Source of the DNA: Ruditapes philippinarum
Lineage: Eukaryota
Assembly: GCF_026571515.1 (NCBI RefSeq)
Contig: NW_026851538.1
Location: 22,164-86,163, forward strand
Length of the DNA: 64,000 nucleotides
Reading direction: 5' to 3'
Shown here piece after piece: positions 12,631 to 46,660 of this stretch. The position numbers were made by a program, and so were the translations under genes. The notes below the pieces were generated by a model. That model ran no database searches, had not been told where the DNA came from, and was given only the letters and a program-made list of their open reading frames with translations. Positions within the stretch are counted from its first letter, which is position 1. Every line of letters starts with the position of its first letter.

Positions 12631-13039
12631 CTGCAACACGACAGTTAACATACAGAATATATATACATGTACTAGATACAAGATAAATGGAGCAAATTAT
12701 GCCTCAACATATAATATATTATAGATATAATGCACATCACACATATAATCACCTGACAAAATTGCTCAGCTTTATTGTAAAGTAAGAAGCAACAAGTCCG
12801 TTCGATAAAAAGGTTAAATAAGTACCTATTGAAAACAACCTGCAGTTAAAAGGGGTATTTAACTTTTTTTATTGGCAGTTTTTCCAATGATGATAATAAT
12901 CAAGGTGAAGGGTTTGATACTGAATGACTTTTTCATATATAGGATTGAACAAAGTATTGAATTACTTCATTGCTTAATTGTTAGAAAGGTATTTATATAC
13001 CATCTAATGTAACACCTTTATAGTCTTTATACAAGCAAA

Positions 13040-14290
13040 TTCGTTGAATTTATATCCCCCGCCGAGTACTGGTTATTATTAACACAACAACTGAAGACAT
13101 AAGGCTTTATTCATATATTAATCATGGCATAAACAGTAATATTCTTTGAACTTGATAAATATTCAGGGCAATAACAGAGCCATACCTTTGTGTTAAATAG
13201 TAAAATCTGGAAATGCCAAAGAGATGTATGCATACTACATAACTACTCAAGGGCCATAAATCTGAGTTATAAGTATCTGACTGGAACAAGGCGACTATAT
13301 GCACATCTCCTCTTAGTATCCCATAAAGTTTCATTGAATTCCAGCCAGTAGTAGCAGAGAAGTAGCGAGGAAACAAAAATTTTTCTATATGGATACTGCA
13401 TAACTAATCAAGGGCCATAACTCTTAGTTAAAGTGTCTGACTGGAACAAGCCGACGATATGCGCATCTCCTCTTGGTATTGAAGGTTCCCATAAAGTTAC
13501 GTTGAATTCAAGCCAGTAGTTGCAGAGAAGTAGTGCAGAAACAATTTTTACTCTATATGCATACTACATAACTAATCAAGGGCCATAAATCGGAGTTAAA
13601 GGGTCTGACCGGAACAAGCCGACGATATGCGCATCTCCTCTTGATATTGATGATTCCCATAAAGTTTCCTTGAATTCCAGCCAGTAGTTGCAGAGAACTA
13701 CTCCGGAAACGATTTTTACTCCATATGCATATTGCATAACTAATCAAGGGCCATAACTCTGAGTTAAAGTGTCTGACCCTAACAAGCTGATGATATGTGC
13801 ATCTCCTCTTGGTATTGAAGGTTCCCATAAAGTTTCGTTGAATTCCAGCCAGTAGTTGCAAAGAAGTAGCGCGGAAACGATTTTTACTCCATATGCATGC
13901 TGCATAACTAATCAAGGGCCATAACTCTGAGTTAAAGTGTCTGACCGGAACAAGCCGACGATATGCGCATCTTCTCTTGGTATTGATGATTCCCATAAAG
14001 TTTCGTTGAATTCCAGCCAGTAGTTGCAGAGAACTACTCCGGAAACGATTTTTACTCTATATGCATACTACATAACTAATCAAGGGCCATAACTCTGAGT
14101 TAAAGGGTCGGACCGGAACAAGCTGACGATATGCGCATCTCCTCTTGATATTAATGATTCCCATAAAGTTTCGTTGAATTCCAGCCAGTAGTTGCAGAGA
14201 ACTACTCCGGAAACGAAATTTGGACAGACGGATGGACGGACGGACAACGCCAAAACTATATCCCCCTCCCGATTCCATCGGCGGGGGATA
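13040..14290 (-). mobile_element. satellite-carrying element: about 6 tandem units of about 170 bp, then (GGAC)n, then a GC hairpin (tatccccctcccgattccatcggcgggggata), then aaaactag
   Basis: ccagccagtag recurs at 13341, 13511, 13681, 13851, 14021 and 14191. The hairpin followed by CTAG resembles a Helitron/Helentron 3' end. The long minus-strand ORFs here (13553-13996, 14080-14325) are artefacts of the repeat periodicity. Confidence 0.65.
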
Positions 14291-14329
14291 AAAACTAGCA
14301 ACCCAGTTACAGTATGTATTTTCACAAAC

Positions 14330-17039: not shown

Positions 17040-17400
17040 ATTGTAAGCGGCCAGATAGCTTAGTCTGCAGAGCCACAGTACTGTATTCTGAGGGTCCCGG
17101 GTTCAAGTCCCGGTCAGGCTGCACATTTTTCTCACCCTGTGACATTTGGCCCCCGACGTTGGGCCTTGACTGAATATAGCTCAGAGTTTAATTCACATTG
17201 CTCTGTAAATTCAAGGACAAATTTCAATATAGCAGGGGAGTATGTCATGGTTAAGAACTGTTCACTATTTCAGAGAGACCATGTGTAAGCGGCCACAAAG
17301 CTCAGTTTGTAGAACTGTAGTACGGTATTCCGAGGGTCCTGGGTTTGAGTCCCAGTCAGTGACTCAGTCTGCACATTTTTCTCACCCTGTCACAGTAATT
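17040..17400 (+). mobile_element. two adjacent tRNA-derived SINE copies (17040-17170 and 17285-17400; B-box gggttcaagtccc / gggtttgagtccc, shared tail ctgcacatttttctcaccctgt)
   Basis: The direct repeat of about 120 bp is about 78% identical. Neither copy folds into a cloverleaf with a paired acceptor stem, so these are not tRNA genes. Confidence 0.65.
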
Positions 17401-26014: not shown

Positions 26015-26148
26015 ATGGCAACTAGGAAAGACAACGAGTCTTTGTTCAGAATTCCACCATATTATTATATTCATGTACTTGACCAGAACAAAAATGTTAC
26101 GAGGTTGGAAGTTGGTCCACAGACGTACATCAGGCAGGACAATGAAAG
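26015..26148 (+). CDS. MVP: MVP coding exon 1 ([44 protein letters not shown] + R partial)
   Basis: ATG at 26015, donor gtgaat. Near-identical to human [45 protein letters not shown]. An acceptor-like tctattttcag lies 11 nt upstream of the ATG. Confidence 0.93.
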
Positions 26149-26157
26149 GTGAATATA

Positions 26158-26393
26158 TGAGCCGTGTCATGACAAAACCAACATAATGCGTTTGCGACCA
26201 GCATGGATCCAGACCAGCCTGCGCATCCGCGCAGTCTGATCAGGATCCATGCTGTTCGCTATCAGATTCTCTACTTGTAATAAGAGTTGGTAAGCGAACA
26301 GCATGGATCCTGATCAGACTGCGCAGATACGCAGGCTGGTCTGGTCACGCCAGTCGCAAACGCACTATGTTGGTTTTGTCATGATGCGGCTCA
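26158..26393. mobile_element. palindromic MITE copy c (236 bp), starting 9 bp after the MVP exon-1 donor
   Basis: Same termini and core as copy b. Flanked by tata / tata. Confidence 0.85.
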
Positions 26394-26457
26394 TATATAT
26401 ATAGATCTATATACTGATTTGTTTGTTGTGTTTTTAAACGTTTTTGGTTTTGAATTT

Positions 26458-28737
26458 TTAGCTCACCTGTCACAAAGTGACAGGGTGAGCTTTTGTGATC
26501 GCTTTTCGTCCGGCGTCCGTCCGGCGTCCGTCCGTCCGTAAACTTTTACTTTAAATGACATCTCCTCATAAACCACTAAGCCAATTTCATCCAAACTTCA
26601 CAGGAATGTTCCTTTGGTGGTCACCTTTAAAAATTGTTCAAAGATTTTAATTCTATGAAGAACTCTGGTTGCCATGGCAACCGAAAGAAAAAACTTTAAA
26701 TATCTTCTTTTAAAAAACCATAAGAGCTAGAGCTTAGATATTTGGCATGAAACATCTTCTAGTGAGTGTCTACCAAGTTTAACAAATAAAAGCCCTGGGG
26801 TCAAAATTGGCCCCGCCCCGGGGGATCATTGATTTTCCCTATATACATATAGTAAAAAATTAAAAAATCTTCTTTTAAAGAACCATAAGAGCTAGAGCTA
26901 AGATATTTAGCATGAAACATGTTCTAATAGGTGTCTACCAAGTTTGTTCAAATAAAAGCCCTGGGGTCAAAATTGGCCCCGCCCCGGGGGGTCATTGATT
27001 TTCCCTATATACATATACTAAAAACTTAAAAAATCTTCTTTTAAAGAACCATAAAAGCTGGAGCTAAGATATTTAGCATGAAACATTTTCTAATGGGTGT
27101 CTACCAAGTTTGTTCAAATAAAAGCCCTGGGGTCAAAATTGGCCCCGCCCCGGGGGGTCATTGATTTTCCCTATATACATATAGTAAAAACTTAAAAAAT
27201 CTTCTTTTAAAGAACCATAAGAGCTAGAGCTAAGATATTTAGCATGAAACATGTTCTAATGGGTGTCTACCAAGTTTGTTCAAATAAAAGCCCTGGGGTC
27301 AAAATTGGCCCCGCCCCGGGGGGTCATTGATTTTCCCTATATACATATAGTAAAAACTTAAAAAATCTTCTTTTAAAGAACCATAAAAGCTAGAGCTAAG
27401 ATATTTAGCATGAAACATTTTCTAATGGGTGTCTACCAAGTTTGTTCAAATAAAAGCCCTGGGGTCAAAATTGGCCCCGCCCCGGGGGGTCATTGATTTT
27501 CCCTATATGCATATAGTAAAAACTTAAAAGATCTTCTTTTAAAGAACTCAAAGAGCTATGGCTAAGATATTTAGCATCAAACATGTTCTAATAGGTGTCT
27601 ACCAAGTTTGTTCAAATAAAAGCCCTGGGGTCAAAATTGGCCCCGCCCCAGGGGGTCATTGATTTTCCCTATATGCATATAGTAAAAACTAAAAAAATCT
27701 TCTTTTAAAGAACCAAAAGAGTTAAAGCTAAGATATTTAGCATGAAACATGTTCTAATAAGTGTGTACCAAGTTTGTTTAAATAAAAGCCCTAGGGTCAA
27801 AATTGGCCCGACCCCCGGGGGGTCATTGATTTTCCCTATATGCATATAGTAAAAACTTAAAAAATCTTCTTTTAAAGAACCAAAAGAGCTAGAGCTAAGA
27901 TTTTGAGCATGAAACATGTTCTAATAGGTGTCTACCAAGTTTGTTCAAATAAAAGCCCTGGGGTCAAAATTGGCCCCGCCCCTTGGGGTCATTGATTTTC
28001 CCTATATGCATATAGTAAAAACTTAAAAAATCTTCTTTTAAAGAACCAAAAGAGTTAAAGCTAAGATATTTAGCATGACACATGTTCTAATAAGTATCTA
28101 CCAAGTTTGTTCAAATAAAAGCCCTTGGGTCAAAAATGGCCCCGCCCTGGAGGATCATTGATTTTCCCTATATGCATATAGTAAAAACTAAAAAAAATCT
28201 TCTTTTAAAGAACTCAAAGAGCTATGGCTAAGATATTTAGCATGAAACATGTTCTAATAAGTGTCTACTAAGTTTGTTCAAATAAAAGCCCTGGGGTCAA
28301 AATTGGCACCGCCCCGGGGGTCATTGATTTTCCTTATATGTGTATAGCAAAAACTTAAAAAATCTTCTTTGAAAAAACCCAAATAGCTAGAGTTAAGATA
28401 TTAAGCATGAAACATCTTCTAGTAAGTGTCTACAAAGTTTGTTCAAATAAAAGCCCTGGGGTCAAAACTGGCCCGGCCCCAGGGGTGTCATTGTTTTTAA
28501 CTATATGTGTAAAGTAAAAACGTTAAAAAATCTTCTTTCAAAAAGCCCAATGAGCTAGAGCTTAGATGTTTAGCATGAAACATCTTCTTATGGGTGTCTA
28601 CCGAGTTTGTGCAAATAAAAGCCCTTGATTTAAATTGGCCCTGAAACGTTGGGGGGGAGGGGGGGTGAGGGGGGGCCTATATACAGGTGAGCGACCTCAG
28701 GGCCATCATGGCCCTCTTGTTTTATTTTTTTGGGTTT
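26458..28737 (+). mobile_element. 2.3-kb satellite-carrying element (pearl/CvA/Helentron-like): 5' hairpin agctcacctgtcacaaagtgacagggtgagct, then (CGTC/CCGT)n, a unique segment of about 200 bp, about 12 units of about 165 bp, a G-rich tail, and a 3' palindrome gggccatcatggccc ending ...ctcttgttttatt
   Basis: aaagccctggggtcaaaattggccccgcccc recurs every 164-166 bp from 26800 to 28620. Near-identical to 44026-46389 in the same orientation. Lies in MVP intron 1. Confidence 0.85.
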
Positions 28738-28892
28738 TTTTTTTGTGTTTGTGTGTTTTTTTAAGTGGCAAAATTTTATAAGGTGTACAGTCCCCAGAGC
28801 AACATCTTTTGGATTTTTGTTGATGCTAAGAGTGGTTGCTGTAGAATGCACAAGAGCTTGACATATAATTTCTTTTGATAATTGAAAAAAAA

Positions 28893-28980
28893 TAGAAAAA
28901 AATTAAGAAATGCCGGCAAATATACCCCTCTATACAATATATTTATTGTATAGAGGGGTATATTTGCCGTTATTTCTTAA
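28893..28980. repeat. near-perfect palindrome of about 85 bp (arms aattaagaaatgccggcaaatatacccctctatacaatat)
   Basis: The reverse complement of the right arm equals the left arm, with 2 mismatches over about 40 bp. Confidence 0.8.
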
Positions 28981-29548
28981 TTATTTGCTTATATTTTTCA
29001 TTTATTGATAGAATGTCAAGCTCCTGAGGTAGGAAGGTAAGATTTATTGTCCAGCCTTACCTGTTGAAGAGTACTGTTGTTGTAGAGAGGTGGTTGTTCT
29101 ACAGAGGTTTGGTTGTCCAGTACAGGTTGCACTATATTTTATTATTGTCCATTTTTTTGATGACATAAAAGAAAGGATACTAAGTTGACTGTGGCTTGAT
29201 GATTTAATTGTCTGTCTGTTAACACAGAAATATTTGGCTCAGATTCTGCTGGGGTCATGCAAATGTTTTGTCATATGACATCAGTTGGGTTTGTTCTGGG
29301 AAAAAAAAAATGTTTTTTTTAGAGTGGTACAAATTAGCACAGAGCTTAATAATTATAAGTCTCTAAAATAACCCACCCGGTTATATTCTTCGCAATTAAG
29401 CATTAAAACCAACAAAAGGAAATATTCTGTAGTATAATTAATTATATTTATACAGGTTTTTTTCTAGTTGATGATGATAAAAAAAAATGAACAGTTTCCC
29501 ATTTAATTGAATATTTCTGTAAAATAACGAAGATTTGATCGATTTTAG

Positions 29549-29744
29549 GGTGGTTATTGGCCCAGAAAAGATGATCACAGTGCCACCCAGGCATTACTGT
29601 GTCATCGAGAATCCAGCCTTGAGAGATAAAGATAACAGTGTTCTCCTTGATAAGAGCGGTCAAGTCCGGCTTTTACACGCTGACCAAGAGATCAGACTTG
29701 CCCAGGATCCCTTCCCACTTTATCCTGGAGAGGTTCTTAAACAG
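29549..29744 (+). CDS. MVP: MVP exon 2 ((R)[65 protein letters not shown])
   Basis: Acceptor gattttag, donor gttggt, 1+195 nt. Human [65 protein letters not shown]. Confidence 0.93.
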
Positions 29745-29772
29745 GTTGGTCTGTTTATTCTTTCTTAAAAAT

Positions 29773-29970
29773 TGAGCTGTGTCAGGACAAAACCAACACA
29801 GTGCGTTTCGACCAGCATGGATCCATACCAGCCTGCGCATCTGCGCAGTCTGATCAGGATCCATGCTGTTCACTATCAGTTTCTCTACTTGTAATATAGT
29901 TGGTAAGCAAACGGCATGGATCCATGCTGGTCGCAAACGCACTATGTTAGTTTTGTCGTGACGTGGCTCA
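29773..29970. mobile_element. palindromic MITE copy d (198 bp), 29 bp after the MVP exon-2 donor
   Basis: tgagctgtgtcaggacaaaaccaacac ... tgttagttttgtcgtgacgtggctca. Confidence 0.8.
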
Positions 29971-30792
29971 AATAATATTAAGCTTTATTTGTTGTATTAT
30001 AAGTGATGTATTAAGAAAATATTGATGAAATAAAATGCTTATTTTCATTTTCCTATTTTCACTTTAAAAATTTATTTTTCACTGCAGTGAAATATATTTT
30101 CCATATTTTCACTGGTGTCTTGAAAATTATCATATATATTTTCATACCACTTGATGAAATAAATCCTTTATTTATAGAAAAAAGTTGAATCTTGATTAAA
30201 AAAAAATTTTATCAAAATTTAAAATGTATCTAAATGGAAGGAATGATGTTTGTAAACTTATAATAAAACTAAAATTAGGTATCATTTAACCAGGGCTCAA
30301 CTTGCAAAGCTGGTCATATTTAAGGAAGTTACCTTAAAATTTTTATTGTCAACAAGGATCATTTCAAGTGATATATTTTGTAATTGTATATTTTTATACT
30401 GTTTACTTCTTTAAGATTTTTATATACCTCAATCATGTATCTACTGATCATATTTAATTAAGGAAGTAACGTCAGAAATCCTATCTTCAACAAGTCTCAT
30501 TGCAAGTTGCTGTGTCACATACACTCTTCCCTATAGGGTGCATGATACACAGTCTGTGAAACGTAATAAGGCTAAAAAGGAAGCAATGTTAAGATTAAAC
30601 TACCTGCACAAAGATATAATTTATCTTGAATAACTTCCTTATTCTTTATAAAATTGATATTAGGTCAGTGGTCTTGTTAAAAACGATAAAAACATTCTAA
30701 ACATGTTCAGTGTACATGTAATTGTAAATTAACTTTTTTGTAACAATGTGTCATTTACATAATTATATAAAAAGTTTTCAATAATTTTTCAG

Positions 30793-30916
30793 GCTGTAAC
30801 TCCGCTGAAAGTTGTGGCCCCTAACTCGGCCTTAAGATTACGTGCAATATTAGACTTTGAAGATGATACAGGGGAAAAGAGGACCGCTGGTGACGAGTGG
30901 CTGTTTGAGGGACCAG
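30793..30916 (+). CDS. MVP: MVP exon 3 ([41 protein letters not shown] + G partial)
   Basis: Acceptor ttttcag, donor gtaaga, 124 nt. Human [41 protein letters not shown]. Confidence 0.93.
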
Positions 30917-31335
30917 GTAAGAATCCCAATCATCTTTGTTGGGTAGGACAGAAAGGTTAAATGAGTGCATCCCTTGGCTGGTTACTTTGGACAAGTTTGA
31001 CTGTATTCACTAAATACCTACACAGGTGACAATATCTTAACAATGATGTGTATCTCACGTTAATGTGCAAGTAATTATATGAAGGTGTATACCATTCACC
31101 AAATTGGTCATTTTTACTTTGAAACAAAAAGCCAGCAACAGTCAGAAATAAAGAAAGCCGAAATTATAAACCCCTTGTCATTGCAAAAATCGTACATTAG
31201 CATTATGTACTTATATGTACTTATTGTACAAGTCCAGAGAATGGGATTGATTGGGATATTTGTAATGAATTTTTGGTGGGGACTTATTTTTCGGAAACTA
31301 AACAAATTGTTTCTTAAATTACTGCTTTCATTTAG

Positions 31336-31688
31336 GTACCTATATACCAAGGAAAGAGGTCGTGGTAGAGGAAACGGTTCGAGCCACTATCATCAAGCCT
31401 AACCAGGCCATCCGGTTACGTGCACGTAAAGAATGCATTGATAGAGAGGGTAACGCACGTGTAACAGGTGAGGAATGGGAAGTGAAGAAGACAGGAGCTT
31501 ACCTGCCAGGAGCGTATGAAGAAGTTGTAGATATTGTTAATGCATATGTGCTAACGGAGAAGAAGGCGCTCCATATGAGGTCGTTGAGGACATTCAAGGA
31601 TGATTTCGGTGTTACACGTAAAAACGGTGAAGAATGGCTTATCACCATGGACATGACAGAAACACATATCCCGAATGTGTACGAAGAG
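31336..31688 (+). CDS. MVP: MVP exon 4 ([47 protein letters not shown]...HIPNVYEE)
   Basis: Acceptor tcatttag, donor gtcagt, 2+351 nt. It is part of listed ORF 31362-31751. Human [49 protein letters not shown]...HVPDVHEE. Confidence 0.93.
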
Positions 31689-32053
31689 GTCAGTTTCTTT
31701 TTGAAATACATACATTCTCAGGATGCATATTCTCATGATCTATTAATGTAGTATATAATAAAGTAATCTGACGAAAATTATAAACAATATCAATGAAGAA
31801 TAATGGTATCGGTAATGGTTGTGGTATAATGTATTCTTTTCTGTTTTGTTGATTGAATTTTTACTACTTTTCTTTGGAAGTTTGTTCCTAACTAAGTTAC
31901 TTAGTGCAACATATTATTTTTGAACATTGATTAAAAAAGAAAGACAGAAATACAAAAAGATGATTTTAAAAAAAAACAACAACACCAAAAACTCAAACCT
32001 TATTTAAATTTAGATTCTTTAATTTATTTTGTCATACAAATTTATACCTGTAG

Positions 32054-32164
32054 GTTGTTGGAGTTGTCAACATCACATCTCTCAGTAACAGACACTACTG
32101 TGTCATCTTAGACCCTGTAGATGAGAAGGGCAGACCACAGATGGGAAGGAAAAAGCTGGTCAAG
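32054..32164 (+). CDS. MVP: MVP exon 5 ([37 protein letters not shown])
   Basis: Acceptor tacctgtag, donor gtatgt, 37 codons. Human [37 protein letters not shown]. Confidence 0.92.
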
Positions 32165-32439
32165 GTATGTATAGTCTGAAAAGATATTTAATTAAATACA
32201 GTGTATCCTTAAGAAACAGAATGAAGTCTAACTGATTGCTAAGCTCAATATGGAGAGTATTTGAAAAGTAATCTAGGAGACGCTGGTTGGTTCCTCGGGC
32301 AAGGCGTAATTTCTCCATGACCAATTGGTCTTGGACATTGATTCTAATGTTCATTTATTTCTCACTGCTGATTTAGTAATGATATTAGTAGTTGGTCACT
32401 TGTGGGGAAATTAATTTATTGGTTAGTTTTCAAGGAAAG

Positions 32440-33840
32440 CTTGTTATGCCCCCACAATGTGGGAGCATATAGCGTTGCACTTGTCCATCCTTCCGTCTGT
32501 CAGTCCGTACGTCCCGAAATCTTGTGAACGCAACTCCTCTTAAACCGGATGGCAGATTTTGCTTAAACTTACAGGGATGAACAACCTTAATGTGTAGATG
32601 GTAGTAAAGGAAGGAATTTTCGCTGCGACCAAATTTAACAGAATTATGGCCCTTTGTTGATTTTTTCACTTTATACTATGTAGAAATTTTGTGAACGCAA
32701 CTCCTCTTAAACCGGATGGCAGATTTTGCTTAAACTTCCAGGTATGAACAAACTTAATGTATAGATGGTAGTAAAGGAAGGAATTTTTGCTGCGACCAAA
32801 TTTAACAGAATTATGGCCCTTTGTTGATTTTTTCACTATATACTATGTAGAAATTTTGTGAACGCAACTCCTCTTAAACCGGCTGGCATATTTTGCTTAA
32901 ACTTACAGGGATGAACAACCTTAATGTGTAGATGGTAGCAAAGGAAGGAATTTTTGCTGCGACCAAATTTAACAGAATTATGGCCCTTTGTTGATTTTTT
33001 CACTATATACTATGTAGAAATTTTGTGAACGCAACTCCTCTTAAACCGGATGGCAGATTTTGCTTAAACTTCCAGGGATGAACAACCTTAATATGTAGAT
33101 GGCAGTAAAGGAAGGAATTTTCGCTGCGACCAAATTTAACAGAATTATGGCCCTTTGTTGATTTTTTCACTATATACTATGTAGAAATTTTGTGAATGCA
33201 ACTCCTCTTAAACCGGATGGCAGATTTTGCTTAAACTTCCAGGGATGAACAACCTTAATGTGTAGATGGTACCAAAGGAAGGAATTTTTGCTGCGACTAA
33301 ATTTAACAGAATTATGGCCCTTTGTTGATTTTTTCACTATATACTATGTAGAAATTTTGTGAACGCAACTCCTCTTAAACCGGAGGGCAGATTTTGCGTA
33401 AACTTCCAGGGATGAACAACCTTAATATGTAGATGGCAGTTAAGGAAGGAATTTTCGCTGCGACCAAATTTAACAGAATTATGGCCCTTTGTTGATTTTT
33501 TCACTATATACTATGTAGAAATTTTGTGAATGCAACTCTTCTTAAACCGGATGGCAGATTTTGCTTAAACTTCCAGGGATGAACAACCTTAATGTGTAGA
33601 TGGCAGTAAAGGAAGGAATTTTTGCTGCAACCAAATTTAACAGAATTATGGCCCTTTGTTGATTTTTTCACTATATACTATGTAGAAATTTTGTGAACGC
33701 AACTCCTCTTAAACCGGATGGCAGATTTTGCTTAAACTTCCAGGGATTAACAACCTTAATGTGTAGATGGTAGTAAAGGAAGGAATTTTTGCTGGGACCA
33801 AATTTAACAGAATTATGGTCCTTTGTTGATTTTTAGTTTT
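32440..33840 (+). mobile_element. satellite-carrying element in MVP intron 5: head ttatgcccccacaatgtgggagcatatag, (GTCC/CCGT)n-like stretch, then about 8 tandem units of about 160 bp (gaaattttgtgaacgcaactcctcttaaaccggatggcagattttgcttaaactt...)
   Basis: Units start near 32515, 32682, 32841, 33001, 33161, 33321, 33491 and 33651. The head is homologous to the one at 6340. Confidence 0.7.
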
Positions 33841-34504
33841 CAACTTGTGGCACATGTAGTCCAAAAATATTTGACCTAGAGTCATAAGATTGACAGAACA
33901 GTGGCGTGTGGGGGCATCAGTGTCCTATGGACACATTTCTAGTTTAAGTGGGTCTTCTAAAGAGTTATTAAAGAAAACATGTGTTGCAAAAATGATTTAT
34001 AAACAAAATCAAAATAAGTCATATGCCAGAAATTTAGACATTCATGATGCATGGTTTGAAAATTTTGATGAAATTATTATTTGTTTTACTTCATTGCATT
34101 TCTCACCACAATTTAATCCTTAAATGGAATCAGAATAGCTTTTTTTTCACCACTTCAGAGCTTGGTAAGACTTGGCCCTATACTGTAGGCTGAGCAACTT
34201 GAGAACTGTCATTAAGATATCCAAAATTGATAATAACTTTCCTATGAATCAAAACAGGATAGTTTATTTAAAAAAAATATGGTATGTGTTGATTCAAATA
34301 CTTAAAATGTTGAGGACTAAATACTGCTAAAACATGTGCTAGGGAGGTGAAAGATGTAGCATCTTCCCTTATATGTCATGGCTAAATACAACCAAGTGAG
34401 CAATTTTTGACAATCCTTTTTTTGTTTTCATTGATATGCCCTTTATTAGAATGTTCAGGAATAAATTTTAAAATGTGACCATGAATATATTTTTTGATTT
34501 ACAG

Positions 34505-34624
34505 GGAGAAAAGACATTTTTCTTGATGCCCGGTGAGCGACTTGAGAGAGGAATTCAAAATGTATATATCCTAGGTGAAGACGAGGGTCTCATCCTGAGA
34601 GCTAACGAGAGTTTCAAAGATGGC
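34505..34624 (+). CDS. MVP: MVP exon 6 ([40 protein letters not shown])
   Basis: Acceptor gatttacag, donor gtaagt, 40 codons. Human [40 protein letters not shown]. Confidence 0.92.
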
Positions 34625-35178
34625 GTAAGTAATTTGAATTATTTCAGAAATATTCTATATATATAAATTACGTGCTTAATGCCAATAAGTAATGCAGTAA
34701 TGAAAGCAGCGAAAAGCAGCTCCTGAAAAATGGAGGATTTTGAGTTTAATTTTTAAACATTTAAACTTTCTAAGCTGAATGGGCTTCTAATTGTATGTTT
34801 TCACTAGATAGACAACTTTCAAAGTTAGTAGAAATATAAAAACTATATTTTTGAATATTGAATGTGAGGAACGTATCCAGCTACCTTATTGAACTGGGTG
34901 GTTCTACTTGGGTGCCAGCTTGTGTCTGAAATAATGCAGAGAGGGAGAGCCAAAGTTTTCCTCCAATAGTCAAGCTGGAAAGTCTTAGGCATGACTTTCA
35001 CACTGTTGATGTGACTTAAAATCCAACAAAAATAAATGCATGAACAAGTACATCCAACAATTTTACTATGAGATAATGATACGTGTTCATTTAGATTTCC
35101 ATGATTTTTATTACACAGACTATATTGTGATCATTTTACATGTAGAATGTTAAAATAACTTTCCTAAACATTATAAAG

Positions 35179-35328
35179 GAGGTGGATCGTAAGCCAGGAG
35201 ATAGATGGATGATCAGAGGCCCTAAAGAATATGTTCCCCCCGTAGAGGTAGAGGTGGTGATGAAACGACAGGCCATTCCCCTTGATGAGAACGAGGGTAT
35301 ATATGTCAGAGATGTTAAAACTGGCAAG
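35179..35328 (+). CDS. MVP: MVP exon 7 ([50 protein letters not shown])
   Basis: Acceptor ttataaag, donor gtatac, 50 codons. Human [45 protein letters not shown]. Confidence 0.92.
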
Positions 35329-36050
35329 GTATACTTGATTATTTTACATTAATGCTGCATGCCTCCAGATGAGTCGAAATATTTCACGAAAATCAGAGTT
35401 GAGAAAAAATGTACTGAAATTTTATGAAAAGTAAAATGATTGAAAATTTTGGTAATAGTTTCCATGTTATGGGCTGTAATGACTGAATTTGTAGTAGTTT
35501 TCACCATAATTCTACTGTGTGACAAATACAGTTAGGGCTATATTAGCATATTTTGACCTCATTTTAGTAATAAACACAGATTGTAAGTTCTGTTTGTAAT
35601 GTGGAAATAACTTTCTTTGTTCACTTCACAATATAGTGCTTTTCAAAACATTTTTCAAAATTTTCATGAAAATTAACATGAATCTGGAGGCATGCTGCTT
35701 TAAGTTTGAGAATTTTCAGTAATTTTCTACAGAAACATATATATATAGTTGATCTATGCTTAAAGTTAACCGTCAAGATTTCAATACTTCTGACACACAT
35801 TTACACCCATTAATCAGCAATACTTGATGCTTTATCTAGGTGTAGCCAATAAATTTTATTGCTCTTGTTACATCAAATCATATCTTTTATAGTACATATA
35901 TGAGGGATTTCTTTTTAATGATAAACTGGAAATCTTTTTCGGCTGTACTACTGGAACTGTTTTCAATCCTGTAGATGAAAAAAGATTATTTTTAGAAAAG
36001 TTTATGATATACACATAAGGATGTTAGTAAATGTTTATTATTACATTTAG

Positions 36051-36286
36051 GTAAGAGCAGTTACAGGGGAGACCTACATGCTAAATCATGATGAGGAACT
36101 CTGGTCAAAGGAACTTCCTCCCGCAGTCGAGAACCTGCTAATGGCAGCTAAAGACCCGCTAGCTGACCGCAATACGAAAGGTGCACCAGAAGCCGGAAAG
36201 GCTCGTGACAAGACACGGGTTATCACATTTAGAGTGCCACACAATGCCGCTGTACAGATTTATGATTATAAGGAGAAAAAAGCTAG
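36051..36286 (+). CDS. MVP: MVP exon 8 ([40 protein letters not shown]...[18 protein letters not shown] + R partial)
   Basis: Acceptor ttacatttag, donor gtaaga, 236 nt ending in phase 2. Human [40 protein letters not shown]...[19 protein letters not shown]. Confidence 0.92.
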
Positions 36287-36429
36287 GTAAGAATGGTAAA
36301 TATGGCGGGAAAATTGGTTGAAAGAAAGTCGTCTGCTGCAATATTGTTATATTCTTTTTAATTTTCTGTTTACATGACATATAATATTGTGGTATCATAT
36401 AATATAGTGGTATGATAGTGTTTGTTGCG

Positions 36430-36670
36430 AAACCTCCGGTGTCCATAGCCAAGTGATTATGGTTGTTGACTTCTGACCACTTTCCCATCACTTCTGTGGG
36501 CTCGAGACTTCCTTGAGATTTTTTTTCTTTCATGTGAGGAAGCCAGTCAGCTAGCTAACATTACATTTGTGGTTCTATTTGGGTGCCCCTTCATGTTTGT
36601 GCGAAGGGACACCTGAGGTCTTCGATCTTCCTCGTCATATGACCTCTACTAGGATGGTGCAATGTAAAAA
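36430..36670 (+). mobile_element. tRNA-derived SINE (family with core gtgcc(c)ctgaaat...cacctgaggt) in MVP intron 8
   Basis: Homologous to 46415-46660 and 57890-58130. Partial copies at 34860-34990 and 39310-39460. Confidence 0.6.
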
Positions 36671-36860
36671 AACAACCAAAACAACAAAAGAAACCTGTTA
36701 TGTAATAATGTAGACACTAAAATTTATGTACTTGTATGTATGAAAACTTGTATTTTTGCACAATTGATATGTGCATTTGTACAATAAAGAATATTATGTC
36801 ATGTATTTATCATGTCAAGTTCATTTTTCTGTAAAACAAAAAATTTTGCCACTTTTTCAG

Positions 36861-37058
36861 AGTTATTTTTGGACCAGAATTAGTTATGCTTGGCCCAGAT
36901 GAACAATTCACACAGCTCAGTATTTCTGGTGGTAAACCAAAGAAACCAAACATGATCAAATCACTTTGTCTTCTTCTCGGACCAGATTTCTGCACAGATA
37001 TCATTGTAGTCGAGACATCTGACCACGCAAGGCTCTCACTTCAACTGTCATACAATTG
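36861..37058 (+). CDS. MVP: MVP exon 9 ([65 protein letters not shown] + W partial)
   Basis: Acceptor actttttcag, donor gtaagt, 198 nt. Human [66 protein letters not shown]. Confidence 0.93.
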
Positions 37059-37254
37059 GTAAGTAGACTGAACAGCACATTTAGAATGTGATGCTAAGAA
37101 AAAATTATAAATATATATATGTCATGAATTTTTTTTTTTGGAATTTGAAATTCAATTAAAATTAAATTTTATTCCCAAGTTTAATGATAAAGATTCCATA
37201 AGTTTCAGAACGGTTAGAGTTTAAGGAATGATAAATTTAGTTTATACGAATTTA

Positions 37255-37455
37255 TTTTAGTTTGATTGTGTTGGAAGCTATAAACTTATTGAAACACTCT
37301 CGAATCTGTTCCTGGAATTAACCAGTACTTGGCAACGAGTGTAAAATTTCTTGCTCAAGGAAACAACGGCTTTCCGCTAACTGGGTTTGAATATTTGCGG
37401 CCAGCAGTCCTTAGATTACTAGTCTGACGTGTTGACCACTCGGCCACGCCGCCAC
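37255..37455 (-). mobile_element. tRNA-derived SINE (minus orientation; head ggccgagtggtcaacacgtcagactagtaatctaagg) in MVP intron 9
   Basis: Homologous to 53545-53710 (minus orientation). Shares its tail with the fragment at 4000-4135. Confidence 0.65.
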
Positions 37456-37685
37456 ACATATTGTAATAGATACAACGTACATGTTTTGTTTGTTTTAATA
37501 ACATCATAGTTTGCTTTACGTTTTATGTGACTTGATAAAGGTTTTCAGGACGACAGCTAGATAGATAGATTCTCTTGTACATCTGTTTTCCTAAAATATT
37601 TATAATGAACATATCTACTATAATCCCTTTTAACACTGTTGATAATCTTGCTTGGTAGTGCTTCTAACATTCTAGCATTTTGCAG

Positions 37686-37830
37686 GCATTTTGAAGTTAA
37701 AAGCAAAGACGACACCGTTGAGTCTGCCAAACTATTCAGTGTTCCTGATTTTGTAGGCGATTCTTGTAAAGCTATCGCATCTCGTGTGAGAGGTGCTGTT
37801 GCCCAAGTCGCCTTTGATGATTTTCATAAG
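37686..37830 (+). CDS. MVP: MVP exon 10a ((W)[48 protein letters not shown])
   Basis: Acceptor ttttgcag, donor gtatgt, 1+144 nt. Human [48 protein letters not shown]. Confidence 0.9.
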
Positions 37831-37880
37831 GTATGTTCAAAATGATTGTTGTAAGTATTTAAAACATTTTGACTTTTCAG

Positions 37881-38025
37881 GCACTTTGGCATAGAGAATA
37901 AGAAAGATGGCGTGGATGCTGCTAAATTGTTCAGCGTGCCAGATTTCGTTGGTGATGCTTGCAAAGCTATCGCCTCTCGTGTCAGAGGGGCCGTAGCTCA
38001 AGTGGCTTTCGATGATTTCCACAAG
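37881..38025 (+). CDS. MVP: MVP exon 10b, a tandem duplicate of 10a ((W)[48 protein letters not shown]). Predicted mutually exclusive with 10a.
   Basis: Acceptor gacttttcag, donor gtatcg, 145 nt, same phase as 10a, 50 nt downstream of it. Using both would add 145 nt and shift the frame. The two copies differ mainly at synonymous sites. Confidence 0.8.
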
Positions 38026-38963
38026 GTATCGCTTTTAGAAAAAAGAATGTGTGTGGTTTTGCAAATTCCCTTAAACCATTGATTTGATACAAAAAAATTA
38101 ATATAAAGAGAAAATTTCTTAATACATGTACACCTGCCTGCTGTGCTATGTTATGAAATTTCGATCCAATTCCTCTAAGTTGTCAAAAATCTACTCACCA
38201 GTGCTGAACCCAAGAGTAAATTAATAATTCTATTCAAATCCTTCAGAATCCATTTAATTTTATAGTAAACACGAAAAATGTATCTTATAAACCTTAAACT
38301 TTTAACACTTTTTAACTTTATTACCAAAACTTGTTTAACATCAAACGTATTTCCAATGGTTTTTGGAATGAAAAAAAATGTTTGTTTTAATACCCCCCCC
38401 CCCCACCCAGCCTTCGGAAAATGTTAGTTAGGGGCATTTTATAGAAATAATACGTTGCTATATGTTGCTCATTTGAGTAGGGATTATACCTTTTAGCAAT
38501 GATGATGTGCATGGGCCATTTGTTCCTAGGGAAACATAATATTTTTTTTCTTACACATTAAGGAAGTTTTTTTTTTCAAAATTCAAAAAGTAATTTTCAT
38601 AGCTATGGGTAGCTGATATATAGCTTTACACACTTAAAAAGATACAGAACAAATGTAGTTAAAAAACATTATTATAAAAAATTATGTACATACTCTGTAC
38701 AAGTTCAAAGTTTCAACATCTCATTTGTAAATTTTAAATGGTTGGTATTATAGTTAAAGTGTCTGCCTCTGAAATCAGAGGTTGTTGGTTAAATCCCTAC
38801 TTTGATGACCACCATGTTTCCTAATATTGTTTATTGGAGCCGGGATAAAGATTGGTTAAAATGAGCTCTTTTCCAATTTAATCGTATTCGAGCTGAAATA
38901 TGTATATTTAACTAGCACCATGGGTAGACTTTTTACTGATGACATGTTTTTTGCTTGTTACAG

Positions 38964-39175
38964 AATTCAGCTAGAGTTATCCGATCGTCTGTGTTTGGTT
39001 TTGATGAGAAGGACAAAGTTCGAGATGTGTTTGTTTTCAAGCAGAATAATCTATACATCACAAGTATTGATATCCAGTCCGTGGAACCTGTCGATCAGCG
39101 TACACGTGACTCGCTACAGAAATCTGTCCAACTGGCCATTGAAATCACCACCAACTCCCAGGAAGCTGCAGCCAG
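38964..39175 (+). CDS. MVP: MVP exon 11 ([70 protein letters not shown] + R partial)
   Basis: Acceptor cttgttacag, donor gtaatg, 212 nt. Human NSARIIRTAVFGF...[37 protein letters not shown]. Confidence 0.93.
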
Positions 39176-39580
39176 GTAATGTCATGTCTTGTTATTTTAC
39201 AGGCTCGAAATCTTTAACTCTAATGTGCTGAAGTATTATTTAGAAGTAACATTTCTACAGTTTTGTTATAAAAAATTATCATATTTTTGTCATTTTAGAT
39301 GTATTTTAAAGCTATCCTTGTAGTTTTGGTGGTTTTACTCCGGTGCCCATTTGTTCCTGAAATATCGACAGAGGGGCTCTTGAGGTCTGCCTCGGTTAGC
39401 TGGAAAATCAACATATGACCTATACTGTATTGGTGCAACGTAAAACCTAACAAAACCAAAAACATCAAATAAAAGTTCACTTTTAAGTGTATACATTTTG
39501 TACATGTACATTGAAGTTTTCTGTTGAAAAAACAGTTTAGCAGATATTTGAAGAATGACAATTTCTTTTTATTTTCACAG

Positions 39581-39800
39581 ACATGAAGCTGAACGATTAG
39601 AACAAGAGGCCAAGGGTCGTCTTGAACGTCAGAAAATCAGCGATGAGGCAGAAGCAGAAAAGGCCCGCAAGGACCTGCTGGAGCTACAGGCTAACAGCGC
39701 AGCTGTAGAGTCCACTGGTCAAGCTAAGGCCGAGGCACAGTCCAGGGCCGAGGCTTCAAGAATTGAGGGCGAGGCTGCTGTTGAACAAGCCAAATTGAAG
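39581..39800 (+). CDS. MVP: MVP exon 12 ((R)[73 protein letters not shown])
   Basis: Acceptor attttcacag, donor gtatgt, 1+219 nt. Human [73 protein letters not shown]. Confidence 0.93.
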
Positions 39801-41855
39801 GTATGTTACTAAATGTGTTACTTACATAAGGTAACGGATATTTATCACAAAAACCTAGGTGAAGGAGTGTAATAAGGTCATAAAATAAAAACGATATTTC
39901 AGTGTAATAATACTTCAATGTGATGTCATTTGCAATATATTTAAATAAGACGTTAAAGCGCATCGAATAAAAAAGTACTCTATTTATAAGTAAACCATTT
40001 TTAGTTTGGATATTTGATAAATAGTATATTATATTTGTGTAGATTCAATGCTAGATTTGTTGAACTCATTATATAAAACAATGTTATGCTTGTCTGAGGC
40101 TTGCATAATATGATTTTATTCAACATGTACAAAGATTTAGTGTCAGTTACTCTGATAGTCCTTACTTTACCTTAACGTCCTTACTTAACCTTAACCCACT
40201 GAATTTATGTATTTTGGTTTGTCAAGCATTTATTTGGAACACCCCATTAAAATTAAAGGGATGTCATTTAAAGCACAAAAAAATGAGCAACCAATACTTT
40301 AGAGCCTGACAAATGGTGCATAAATTTATTGACTGGCCTGGCCTTATTCTTGTGGCAAAGGTTGATTACCTTTGGTTCCAGGCTAAGGGAACCGTAAACA
40401 TTATTTTCACTTACAGCTTTAAAATATGATATTTTTCATGCAATTAAAGGGAGACCACTGAGTTTTTTTCACATGAGCTGAACTAGAAAACGTTTTTAGC
40501 TCGACTATTCGAAGAAAATGAGAGCTATTGTAGTCGCCCCGGCGTCGGCGTCAGCGTCCGCGTCGGCGTCTGCGTTGGTTAAAGTTTTTTGTAAAGTCAA
40601 ATATCTTAAATATTGCTTGAGATATTCAATTGAAACTTACAATACTTATTTATAGTAACAAGGTACATCAGATTGACAAGTTGGATAACTCTATCTACAA
40701 TATTGCCAGAATTATGCCCCTTTTTAACTTAGAAATTTTGGTTAAAGTTTTTTATAAAGACAAATATCTCAATTATTGTTTGAGATATTCAATTGAAACT
40801 TACAATACTTATTTATAGTAACAAGGTACATCAGATTGACAAGTTGGATAACTCTGCGTACAATATTGACAGAAATATGCCCCTTTGAAACTTAGAAATT
40901 TTGGTTAAAGTTTTTTTGTAAAGTCAAATATCTCAACTATTGCTTGAGATATTCATTTGAAATTTACAATACTTTTTTATAGTAACAATGTACATCATTT
41001 TGCTAAATTGCATATCTCTGTCTGCAATATTTGCAGAATTATTTGCCCCTTTGAAACTTAGAGATTTTGGTTAAAGGTTAAAGATCTTCAAAGATATTTA
41101 CTTGAAACTTTACACATGTACTTTGGGTTATAATATGAGGGTCATAATTGTATGTCACTGACCAAGTTCCATAACTCTATCTTGCATTAAGGCTGATTCA
41201 TATCCCCTTTTCTACTTAGTCTCTTGGATAATGTTTACATGCAAGCTTTACATATCTCAATAACTATTAAAGATATTTATTTAAAACTTCACATATGCAT
41301 TTAGGGTCAGAATTGTAGGTCACTGACAAAGATCCATAATTCTATCTTGCATTTAGGCTGATTTTTCTTCCTTTTTTCAACTTTAAAAATTCATGGTAAA
41401 GTTTTGCTTGTAAGCTGTTATCTCCATAACTACTGAAGGGTTTGTGCCTTTTTTGGGACAATTTTATGCATTCGTAATAATAAAGCAGTGATTTACTTGA
41501 TAAAACAGCTTAATAACAAGCCTTTGTACCTTTTCTGTCAATTTTATGTATTCATAGGTAATTAGTATTATTATACTCAATAAAGCACCCTTGTGACATT
41601 ACCTTCCAAATAGTCAAGCCAATACTGTATAATTAGACTCTCTCTAAGACCTATAACATGAATTTATAAAAAAAAATTAGCCCTTTTGTGAACTTAAAAA
41701 ATTTAACATTATCAAGGCTCTTTTACTATCAAGCAATTAGAATAGTCGAGCGTGCTGTCCTACCGACAGCTCTTGTTTCTTAAGCAAATCTGGACTGCTA
41801 TAAATTATATGGTTAATGTTTTACATAATTAATGCTCATGGTTTTCATTATATAG

Positions 41856-42236
41856 GCACAAGCCATGAAGATTGAGGCGGAGTCTGAACTTGAGAGGTTG
41901 ACCAGTGCCAGAGAGGCGGAGCTTAAGTTTGTAAAGGAACAGAATGAAATGGAATTGGCCAAATCCAGAGAGACTGCCGAGATCGAGACAGTTAAGTTCA
42001 AGCAAATGGTGGACGCTATTGGTTCGAGCACCCTTCAGGCCATTGCCACGGCTGGTCCGGATCTTCAGGTCCGCATGCTCCAGGCTCTTGGTATGAAATC
42101 AACTGTGATCACCGACGGCACCACACCGGTCAATTTGTTTAACACGGCCCAAGGACTAATTGGGGGAATTGGAGGTGGACATATGGTCCCTTCAAAACGT
42201 GCACGAAGAAATGACGATGATGAGGATGATGATTAG
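41856..42236 (+). CDS. MVP: MVP terminal exon ([15 protein letters not shown]...[80 protein letters not shown])
   Basis: Acceptor ttatatag, TAG stop at 42234-42236. Part of listed ORF 41865-42236. Human AQALAIETEAELQRV...[57 protein letters not shown]. Total CDS is 2580 nt, 859 aa. Confidence 0.93.
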
Positions 42237-43372: not shown

Positions 43373-44025
43373 ATGAAGAAAAACAAACAAAAAAAAACAA
43401 CAGCAAAATTCTTCATAAAGTGTGCAATGGTTTACAGTAGGGTGAGAAAATGGCACAAATCCAGTTAAGAATTAACACAAAAAATACGTTTTTCAATTTA
43501 TTTAGGAGTATATTTCTACATTATCATTTGCATATCATAGTGTTATAGGGATTTAAACCGCAGTGGAGTTCCTTTAAGACAAGGTCAGTGGTGACCCTTG
43601 ATTGGACTAATTATGTGCGGGCTGTGAGGTGGCAATCTTAAGGTTTAATGGCTTGAGGGTACAGTGCAGACAAGCTTTCTACTAACAAAATGTTTGGGAT
43701 ACAGATTAATATGTTTTGTAATGTTTTCAAATTATTGTTAACATTTTTTTTTCTTGTTCTTTTGTCATGAGGTTTCATTTTGTAAACGGAATGATGTTGT
43801 GCTTAAATATATTTTTTCTACACTTTGTTTTCTAAATTGTTTTTTTTTATATTTCTTACACTATGTGATAAGTCAATCACCTCTAAAACAAAATCGCCTT
43901 TTGTTGTTTATTTCTTTAATATATTATTTATAGATGCGTACAAATAAATATTTGACATAAAAAATGATGTTTGTTGTTTATGTGAATTTAAGTGTGTAAA
44001 TGATTATTTATACCATGACTTTTTA

Positions 44026-46389
44026 GCTCACCTGTCACAAAGTGACAGGGTGAGCTTTTGTGATCGCTTTTCGTCCGGCGTCCGTCCGTCCGTCGTCCGT
44101 CCGTAAACTTTTGCTTTAAATGACATCTCCTCATAAACCACTGAGCCAATTTCATCCAAACTTCACAGGAATGTTCCTTTGGTGGTCACCTTTAAAAATT
44201 GTTCAAAGAATTTAATTCCATGCAGAACTCTGGTTGCCATGGCAACCAAAAGAAAAATCTTTAAATATCTTCTTTTAAACAACCCTAAGAGCTAGAGCTT
44301 AGATATTTGGCATGAAACATCTTCTAGTGAGTGTCTACCAAGTTTGTTCAAATAAAAGCCCTGGGGTCAAAAATGGCCCCGCCCCAGGGGGTCATTGATT
44401 TTCCCTATATGCATATAGTAAAAACTTAAAAAATCTTCTTTTAAAGAACCCAAAGAGCTAGAGCTAAGATATTTGGCATGAAACATCTTCTAGTGAGTGT
44501 CTACCAAGTTTGTTCAAATAAAAGCCCTGGGGTCAAAATTGGCCCCGTCCGGGGGGTCATTGATTTTCCCTATATGCATATAGTAAAAACTTAAAAATCT
44601 TCTTTTAAAGAACCGTAAGAGCTAGAGCTTAGATATTAAGCATGAAACATCTTCTAGTGAATGTCTACCAAGTTTGTTCAAATAAAAGCCCTGGGGTCAA
44701 AATTGGCCCCGCCCCAGGGGGTCATTGATTTTCCCTATATGCATATAGTAAAAACTTAAAAAATCTTCTTTTAAAGAACCCAAAGAGCTAGAGCTAAGAT
44801 ATTAAGCATGAAACATCTTCTAGTGAGTGTCTACCAAGTTTGTTCAAATTAAAGCCCTGTGGTCAAAATTGGCCCCACCCCGGGGGGTCATTGATTTTCC
44901 CTATATGCATATACTAAAATCTTAAAAAATCTTCTTTTAAAGAACCATAAGAGCTAGAGCTTAGATATTTGGCATGAAACATCTTCTAGTGAATGTCTAC
45001 CAAGTTTGTTCAAATAAAAGCCCTGGGGTCAAAATTGACCCCGCCCCAGGGGGTCATAGATTTTCCCTATATGCATATAGTAAAAACTTAAAAAATCTTC
45101 TTTTAAAGAACCCAAAGAGCTAGAGCTAAGATATTTAGCATGAAACATCTTCTAATGAGTGTCTACCAAGTTTGTTCAAATAAAAGCCCTGGGGTCAAAA
45201 TTGGCCCCGCCCAAGGGGGTCATTGATTTTCCCTATATGCATATAGTAAAAACTTAAAAAATCTTCTTTTAACGAACTCAAAGAGCTAGAGCTAAGATAT
45301 TTAGCATGAAACATGTTCTAATGGGTGTCTACCAAGTATGTTCAAATAAAAGCCCTGGGGTCAAAATTGACCCCGCCCCGGGGGTCATTGATTTTCCTTA
45401 TATGTGTATAGCAAAAAACTTAAACTCTTCTTTGAAAAAGCCCAAATAGCTAGAGTTTAGATATTAAGCATGAAACATCTTCTAGTAAGTGTCTACAAAG
45501 TTTGTTCAAATAAAAGCCATGGGGTCAAAACTGGCCCCGCCCCAGGGGTGTCATTGTTTTTAACTATATGTGTATAGCAAAAACTTAAAAAAATCTTCTT
45601 TTAAAAAGCCCAATGAGCTAGAGCTTAGATGTTTAGCATGAAACATCTTCTTATGGGTGTCTACCAAGTTTGTTCAAATAAAAGCCCTGGGGTCAAAATT
45701 AGCCCCACACCAGGGGGTCATTGATTGTCCCTATATGCATATAGTAAAAACTTAAAAAATCTTCTTTTAAAGAACTCAAAGAGCTAGAGCTAAGATATCT
45801 AGCATCAATCATGTTCTAATAGGTGTCTACCAACTTTGTTCAAATAAAAGCCCTGGGGTCAAAATTGGCCCTGCCCAGGGGGTCATTGATTTTCGTTATA
45901 TGTGTATAGCAAAAACTTAAAATCTTCTTTGAAAAAACCCAAATAGCTAGAGTTTAGATATTAAGCATGAAACATCTTCTAGTGAGTGTCTACAAAGTTT
46001 GTTCAAATACAAGCCCTGGGGTCAAAATTGGCCCCGTCCCGTCGTTCATTGATTTTCCTTATATGTGTATAGCAAAAACTTAAAATTTTCTTTGAAAAAA
46101 CTCAAATAGCTAGTGTTTAGATCTTTAAGCATGAAACATCTTCTAGTAAGTGTCTACAAAGTTTGTTCAAATAAAAGCCCTGGGGTCAAAACTGGCCCCG
46201 CCCCAGGGGTGTCATTGTTTTTAACTTTATGTGTATAGTAAAAACTTAAAAAAAATTTCTTTTAAAAAGCCCAATGAGCTAGAGCTAAGATGTTTAGCAT
46301 GAAACATCTTCTTATGGTGGTGGGGGGGGGGGGGTGCTATATACAGGTGAGCGACCTCAGGGCCATCATGGCCCTCTTGTTTTATTATA
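44026..46389 (+). mobile_element. second copy of the 2.3-kb hairpin-(CCGT)n-satellite element (about 13 units of about 165 bp), downstream of MVP
   Basis: Head tttagctcacctgtcacaaagtgacagggtgagcttttgtgatcgcttttcgtccggcgtccgtcc. Tail ggtggggggggggggtgctatatacaggtgagcgacctcagggccatcatggccctcttgttttatt. Both match 26458-28737. Confidence 0.85.
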
Positions 46390-46414
46390 CAGTAGGAAAA
46401 AATCGGGGCCTCCT

Positions 46415-46660
46415 TGGCTGAGTGGTTACAGTTGTTGACTTCAAACTACAGTTCCTCACGCTTGTGGGTTTGAATCCCGCCAGTTCAAGGGAGGAGACTT
46501 TCCAACTAGCTTACGAAGTGTTGGTGATTCTAGTCAAGTACCTGTTCGTGCCTGAAATATTGCACGGAGTGGCACCTGAGGTTGTCCTCCAGCACTAAAG
46601 CTTGTAAGTCGCCATATGACATTTACCGTGTAAGTGCAACATGAAAAACCAAAAAAGTAA
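46415..46660 (+). mobile_element. tRNA-derived SINE (A-box tggctgagtggtta, B-box gggtttgaatcccgcc)
   Basis: Immediately follows the satellite element. Same family as 36430 and 57890. Confidence 0.6.

Follow-up and report, generated by a model that had tools for sequence, protein, structure and literature searches.

Two copies of one element at the MVP locus

The 64,000-nucleotide stretch of the Ruditapes philippinarum genome considered here (the window; contig NW_026851538.1, forward strand, 22,164 to 86,163, with positions counted from its first letter) holds a complete-looking MVP gene on the plus strand (26015-42236) and, in and around it, a series of elements in which a hairpin head and a palindromic tail enclose a tandem array. 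Two of these, e1 and e2, are very probably independently inserted copies of a single family of HINEs, i.e., non-autonomous, non-coding derivatives of the Helitron2-type rolling-circle transposons known as Helentrons. The gene comprises ~13 coding exons, which were placed by tblastn with a human MVP query. They form a colinear series from 26015-26167 (residues 1-48) to 41856-42236, with the stop codon at its end, and Pfam detects Vault repeats in the exon at 31362-31751. Element e1 lies in intron 1 and e2 1.8 kb past the stop codon, while two further elements, C and D, occupy later introns; all four are in the sense orientation. A first-pass annotation made from the sequence alone had the pair bracketing the 3' half of MVP; with e1 in intron 1, the bracketed part in fact runs from exon 2 to the last exon, which is ~95% of the coding sequence.

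Delimited by its similarity to e2 and to an external relative (L006, described below), which extends from the T-run before AGCTC to a common ...CTCTTGTTTTATT, e1 is a complete copy of 2272 bp (26455-28726). The second copy, e2, measures 2367 bp (44020-46386), and both are on the plus strand. The first-pass annotation had correctly recognized the two elements, but the ends it had given them lie a few bases too far out, as similarity ceases at 28726 and 46386. The modules follow one order in both copies: T-run, hairpin, (CGTC)n microsatellite, ~150-bp spacer, tandem array, G-rich stretch, 3' subterminal inverted repeat (subTIR), palindrome, and the T-rich end ...CTCTTGTTTTATT. The head reads as a T-run followed by AGCTCACCTGTCAC-AAA-GTGACAGGGTGAGCT. 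Its 5' subTIR, GCTCACCTGT (26461-26470 in e1), pairs with a complementary inverted repeat (IR) to give a hairpin at 26460-26491 in e1 and 44025-44056 in e2. The hairpin of e1 folds at -13.2 kcal/mol (z = -6.5 against shuffles); it had been called perfect, but its stem carries a 1-nt bulge. The microsatellite is of the form (CGTC/CGGCGTC)n in e1 (26507-26538) and of the (CGTC)n type in e2 (44072-44104). The array consists of 12 units of 166 bp in e1 (26689-28692) and of 13 units in e2 (44254-46352), numbers that bear out the earlier count: Tandem Repeats Finder (TRF) gives 11.7 and 12.4 copies, which become 12 and 13 monomers once the degenerate last unit is counted. This last unit is the G-rich "tail," and its ...CCTATATACA continues into the 3' subTIR. 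The latter, ACAGGTGAGC in e1 (28683-28692, 44 nt from the 3' end; 46343-46352 in e2), is the reverse complement of the 10 nt that directly follow the 5' T-run and stands directly before the palindrome AGGGCCATCATGGCCCT, which is found at 28699-28715 in e1, 11 nt from its 3' end, and at 46359-46375 in e2. The termini can accordingly be written as TTTTTAGCTCACC...GGTGAGCG-palindrome-CTTGTT. Every part that the two copies had been said to share (hairpin head, CCGT-type tract, unique region, array, G-rich tail, palindrome, and common end) is present in both.

When the e1 head was compared with the window by BLAST, the match in e2, with the spacer included, had 95.5% identity over 243 bp. Over the whole elements the identity in a global alignment is 90.2%, for which "near-identical," as the copies had been styled, is too strong a term. 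Outside the T-run and past ...TTTTATT, the flanks of e1 and e2 are unrelated, which indicates two separate insertions rather than one duplicated segment.

Terminal signature of the elements

HINEs are defined by a 5' subTIR with an adjacent IR 1-22 bp after it, a GTCY-type microsatellite, and repeats of 140-180 bp; at their 3' end, a subTIR of ~11-15 bp lies 38-60 bp, and a palindrome 8-35 bp, from the terminus (PMC4067079, PMC7492417). The asymmetric layout of subTIRs and palindrome in e1 and e2 matches this published definition and leads to their assignment as HINEs. The same design recurs in other elements of the window, whose arrays were located with TRF and whose subTIRs and palindromes were sought by script; the four complete ones, A to D, are treated individually further below. 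In the elements of the window, an IR complementary to the 5' subTIR is followed by the microsatellite, and the central repeats have periods of 156-168 bp (TRF) in fixed orientation. A T-run stands ahead of all seven 5' junctions. Paired subTIRs are longest in B (13 nt), followed by D (12 nt), C (11 nt), and e1 and e2 (10 nt each); those of A, with 8 nt, fall below the published length. A palindrome follows within a few nucleotides of the 3' subTIR in all six elements and in L006, although that of A is imperfect. Under the criterion of a subTIR no shorter than 10 nt and a palindrome behind it, five of the six elements bear the signature; among 20,000 random pseudo-elements the proportion is 0.125%, which excludes chance. 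The head hairpins of e1, A, B, and C are also far more stable than those of shuffled sequences. The pearl/CvA/DTC84-type, Helentron-like architecture named in the first-pass annotation is supported, since subTIRs, IR, microsatellite, 160-170-bp repeats in the same orientation, 3' palindrome, and T-run junctions are all found.

The termini fall into three groups. In group I, e1, e2, and a truncated e1-like fragment share with the related D the motifs TTTTTAGCTC... and ...GAGCG-palindrome-CTCTTGTT. In group II, A and C share TTATGCCCCC... and ...GGGGGCAT-palindrome-ATTTCTAGTTT. The group II heads (A, 6339-6368; C, 32446-32468) can be aligned with the only head of group III (B, 14290-14258), the corresponding tails being at 7849, 33907, and 13053. 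In this alignment B has ATCCCCC where A and C have ATGCCCC, and this G/C swap is mirrored in the IR and the 3' subTIR of B, which carry GGGGGAT against GGGGCAT in the IR of A and GGGGGCAT in the 3' subTIRs of A and C. Since all three sites show the swap, it appears that compensatory change has maintained the pairing itself.

Array turnover and kinship of the repeat units

Monomer-by-monomer identities show that the array edges of e1 and e2 are positionally conserved: a1 of e1 matches b1 of e2 at 95%, and a10-a11-a12, the three variant units at the end, are kept. Within e1, a two-unit block is duplicated, with a2 matching a4 and a3 matching a5, both at 99%, which points to duplication having taken place recently. 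In e2, the terminal three-unit X-Y-Z block is present twice (b7-b9, b10-b13). Together, the monomer identities and block duplications indicate that the number of units changed after the e1 and e2 lineages split. To this extent the proposal that arrays change length after insertion is supported; the change may have taken place in situ or in a source copy.

The e1 monomer is 63% identical to the CL1/Cg170 monomer of Crassostrea gigas over 165-166 bp and in register with it (z = 8 in global and ~11 in local comparison with shuffles), as judged against a single oyster monomer from the supplement of PMC7492417. This similarity suggests distant kinship of the 166-bp unit with the oyster satellite Cg170, and it falls below the ~66-70% identity with Cg170 published for the subfamilies of Cg170/HindIII, which are BIV160-related. 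The units of different elements in the window had been regarded as unrelated, but two boxes at fixed spacing and orientation are common to them. The first, CAGARTTATGSCCCTTT, occurs 23 times against 0.05 expected. In the arrays of A, B, C, and D it has the same orientation relative to head and tail (e.g., at 6545 in A, 13929 in B, 32639 in C, and 40707 in D), while a decayed element, E, has a box-like copy on both strands (e.g., at 1323). The second, ATTCAAYnnAAACTT, lies 78-86 bp beyond the first in A, B, and D, and the units of C and e1 share a segment adjoining box 1. Comparable conserved segments are known from oyster clusters that are otherwise dissimilar (PMC7492417). The core of box 1, TTATGCCCC, is also the core of the group II 5' terminus, so the boxes could conceivably be internal copies of the recognition or nicking site of the Rep enzyme. 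Arrays would then grow, shrink, and be swapped by re-initiation and termination of rolling-circle replication and not by unequal crossing-over alone. We regard this as an unlikely proposal; if it were true, central repeats would not be independent cargo in HINE families that differ in their termini.

Copies outside the window and evidence for mobility

A metagenome scan for the e1 hairpin matched two contigs. One carries L006 (JACCEC010025138.1, 484-1601, minus strand), a complete relative of ~1.1 kb with the same head as e1 and a homologous tail around an unrelated 145-bp array. Its tail reads CAGGTGAGCGACC-CAGGGTCCcatGGACCTT-CTTGTT, in which the palindrome differs from that of e1 in sequence and is still palindromic. 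Head and tail, whose linkage the first-pass annotation had presupposed, thus stay together around a different array instead of occurring apart. L006 interrupts an E-like tandem repeat and follows TTTTT without a gap; the neighboring monomer reads uninterrupted as CCATTTTT-GAATT... and so provides a paralogous empty site for the 5' junction.

A second indication of mobility comes from D, which lies in the last MVP intron. A JGI metagenome protein matches the last MVP exon without a difference (100%); its contig, L001, has 96% identity with the window and includes the 3' end of D. The intron is 1991 bp long in the window, ~660 bp in L002 (the closest other relative, with exons 86% identical), and ~140-700 bp in other relatives. 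The difference from L002 roughly equals the length of D (1289 bp), and D appears to be absent from the orthologous intron of the relatives, as judged by intron length. Apart from T, nothing is duplicated in the flanks of e2, C, and D.

Other searches gave little. The e1 head was not found in prokaryotic genome contigs or in viral contigs, and box 1 had in these contigs only single matches, in unrelated contigs and none of them in an array, which we take as chance. Terminal and box sequences sought in the full texts of papers returned no match or irrelevant ones, and the Limnoperna satellitome supplements contain none of the motifs.

Mechanism and alternative explanations

On the HINE interpretation, the Rep/helicase, with its endonuclease, of an autonomous Helentron elsewhere in the genome would recognize the terminal structures, nick the T-rich junction, and peel off one strand. 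This strand would then be pasted into another T-rich site without a target-site duplication (TSD), after which the arrays could expand, contract, and homogenize by unequal exchange or replication slippage. Several observations weigh against this interpretation. No Rep, helicase, or endonuclease was detected in the window, where Pfam was run on 15 of the 20 open reading frames of at least 90 aa (the longest, of 147 aa, is inside the array of B), and the Helentron assignment is therefore one made on structure. Thermodynamically, the head hairpin is weak in D and the tail hairpin in both A and B, and no more than three complete copies with e1-type termini were encountered. Finally, the last MVP introns of the relatives are too diverged to align with that of the window, so that a base-exact empty site covering both junctions was not obtained; the absence of a TSD and the exact ends within the T-runs are therefore putative.

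Canonical Helitrons were considered and set aside. These start with 5' TC, end with 3' CTRR, have a hairpin ~10-12 nt ahead of that end, insert between A and T, and have no inverted repeats; e1 and e2 start with (T)nAGCTC, end with ...CTTGTTTTATT, have T flanks, and bear subTIRs. A and C do carry CTAG before the final TTT, yet they too have subTIRs.

Among the remaining explanations, that of hairpin-ended elements moved by some other, possibly undescribed, enzyme acting on single-stranded DNA has a small chance of being right. It would reduce the HINE features to a mere resemblance, and it draws on the fact that no published study, the one on C. gigas included, ties bivalve HINEs to a specific autonomous Helentron. 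It has to contend with the presence of every structural HINE hallmark in these elements and with the proven partners of HINEs in mite, mosquito, and Drosophila (PMC4067079).

A slim chance attaches to the view that the elements are transposable elements of the miniature inverted-repeat type (MITEs), i.e., deletion derivatives of a cut-and-paste transposon with a DDE transposase, in which the repeats would be binding sites of the transposase and T or TT a short TSD. Inverted repeats do exist, a T at both ends makes a duplication of 1-2 nt conceivable, the publication on DTC84 gave it a putative AA (= TT) duplication, and both pearl and DTC84 were originally described in this way. What speaks against MITEs is the asymmetry found in every element: the repeat begins 1-6 nt from the 5' end, whereas on the 3' side it is 44 nt away from the terminus and precedes a palindrome. 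Held to the standard of terminal repeats at both ends plus a TSD, e1 and e2 were rejected as MITEs, since the 3' repeat is 44 nt internal and no duplication extends beyond T, the latter being true of the flanks of C and D as well as of e2; the literature, moreover, has moved these elements to the HINEs (PMC4067079, PMC7492417). That the copies reflect a segmental duplication, or ordinary dispersed satellite arrays that are not mobile, is scarcely credible: they do lie in the same orientation, 15 kb apart, at one locus, but their flanks have no relation to each other from the T-run and from ...TTTTATT outwards, the heads and tails are fixed and non-repetitive, the same head and tail surround a different array in the unrelated contig of L006, and D is missing from the orthologous intron of relatives, judged by its length.

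Other probable HINEs in the window

The first-pass annotation had listed three further families of the same plan. These correspond to A, B, and C, which do share the layout; D and the decayed E had been overlooked. Element A (6334-7884, plus strand, group II) has a head ATGCCCCC...GGGGCAT, followed by (TTCCGTCA)n, seven units of 161 bp, a spacer of ~300 bp, GGGGGCAT at 7849, an imperfect palindrome, and the end ...ATTTCTAGTTT. Element C, also of group II and located in an MVP intron (32444-33945, plus strand), starts with ATGCCCCCACA at 32446, has 7.9 units of 167 bp, and closes with TGTGGGGGCAT at 33907, the palindrome GTGTCCtatGGACAC at 33920, and the same end ...ATTTCTAGTTT. Both had been drawn too short, as their tails extend beyond the arrays to ~7884 and ~33945.

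Element B (13028-14295, group III) is on the minus strand. Its 5' subTIR, TATCCCCCGCCGA at 14290-14278, is followed by the IR, (GTCC)n, and 5.9 units of 168 bp; at the 3' end, the subTIR TCGGCGGGGGATA (13053-13065) precedes the palindrome AAATTCaacGAATTT (13037-13051). The "hairpin + CTAG" in which B had been said to end is its 5' head read backwards. A plus-strand Helitron reading built on that feature was rejected, as the head aligns with those of A and C in the minus orientation only, and the boxes agree with this. A CTAG does lie just outside the head (14292-14299; minus strand CTAGTTTTT-ATCCCCC) and resembles the ...CTAGTTT termini of A and C. The sequence upstream of it, however, has no homology to a tail, and its position is probably a coincidence.

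Element D (40493-41781, plus strand), which is related to group I, begins with GCTCGACTATTC at 40499 and continues with (CGGCGT)n and 3.1 units of 163 bp plus decayed ones. Its 3' part consists of GAATAGTCGAGC at 41740, the palindrome GCTGTCctaccGACAGC (41754-41770), and the end CTCTTGTTT, ~75 bp upstream of the last MVP exon (41856).

Near the start of the window, 1090-2290 is a nest of at least three HINE pieces on the minus strand, in which one head is inserted at a T-run inside the monomer of another element, much as L006 has entered a repeat. An inverted e1-like copy had been placed at 1750-2290; it exists but spans 1976-2290 only. It retains the head and one monomer, is 82% identical to the e1 head (BLAST match at 2089-2276), and is cut at a T-run by the head of another HINE. 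Further pieces are piled up at 1090-1975 (minus strand), including a group II-like head (1975-1900) and E (~1090-1790, minus strand), whose head lies near 1790; its (CGTC)3 is at 1748-1737, and its array, with a period of 156 bp, extends from 1701 to ~1090. The 3' end of E was not found. More tandem arrays, of short period and without HINE-type heads, are present at 54436-54988 (32 bp x 13), 58202-58427 (42 bp x 5.3), and 60766-61046 (22/65 bp x 4-13).

Side observations around MVP

Elements e1 and e2 form direct repeats of 2.3 kb and 90% identity around MVP exons 2 to last. As such, they are a possible substrate for unequal recombination. The two could also be mobilized, together with these exons, as one composite by bypass of an end, a weaker proposal than that made above for the boxes. 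A tRNA-like stretch, GGCTGAGTGGTTA...GGTTTGAATCCCG (46405-46480, plus strand), adjoins the 3' end of e2, and another, at 17049-17121 (plus strand), is tRNA-like by Rfam (39.5 bits), while ARAGORN finds no tRNA there; both are probably heads of tRNA-derived short interspersed elements. An 85-bp stretch at 2363-2446 has 75% identity with 8928-9012 of L004/L005, where a distant relative has its last MVP intron, and is probably another shared interspersed repeat.

Relation to known systems

The elements described here are additions to a kind already well described in oysters, clams, and flies, and are in this sense real but ordinary. With at least seven insertions in 64 kb, three of them sense-oriented HINEs in the introns of a single gene, the window offers a compact example of how Helentron-derived elements seed short satellite-like arrays through gene-rich DNA. 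It shows at once how the same termini can surround different arrays, how monomers of distant kinship (with two boxes in common) occur within different termini, and how arrays turn over after copies have diverged. These provide material for the question of how central repeats arise, while current understanding is left unchanged. For annotation, such elements should be masked as HINEs and not as satellites or MITEs.

The closest known systems are Cg_HINE_1 and Cg_HINE_2 of C. gigas (the Repbase Helitron-N2_CGi group; PMC7492417), which have the same module order, T-rich insertion sites, and fixed-orientation repeats of ~166 bp. They are also of similar size, 2.3 kb here against matched Repbase entries of up to 2.3-2.6 kb, and the central repeat of e1 and e2 may belong to, or lie near, the Cg170/HindIII family; the likeness resides in architecture and monomer (63%). 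They differ in their arrays, which typically have at most 5 units against the 12-13 of e1 and e2, and in their host. The oyster study could not tie its HINEs to an autonomous partner (PMC7492417). The pearl elements of Crassostrea virginica (CvA, CvE, and CvG), DTC84 of Donax trunculus, and MgE of Mytilus galloprovincialis share the design of a flank, core repeats of ~160 bp, (ACGG)n, and a second flank, with an inverted motif placed subterminally on one side and close to the terminus on the other, as here. These were published as MITE-like and in the opposite orientation, the (ACGG)n of pearl being the reverse complement of the (CCGT)n tract of e1 and e2, and the comparison with them is one of architecture and literature only. 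More remotely, DINE-1/HINE elements of Drosophila, mite, and mosquito have subTIRs of 12-15 bp, an IR, a microsatellite, central repeats, and a 3' stem-loop like those described here, and they insert at TT without a TSD (PMC4067079), which may be compared with the T-run junctions of the window. They have no sequence similarity to the clam elements, and it is in those taxa that autonomous Helentron partners have been demonstrated.

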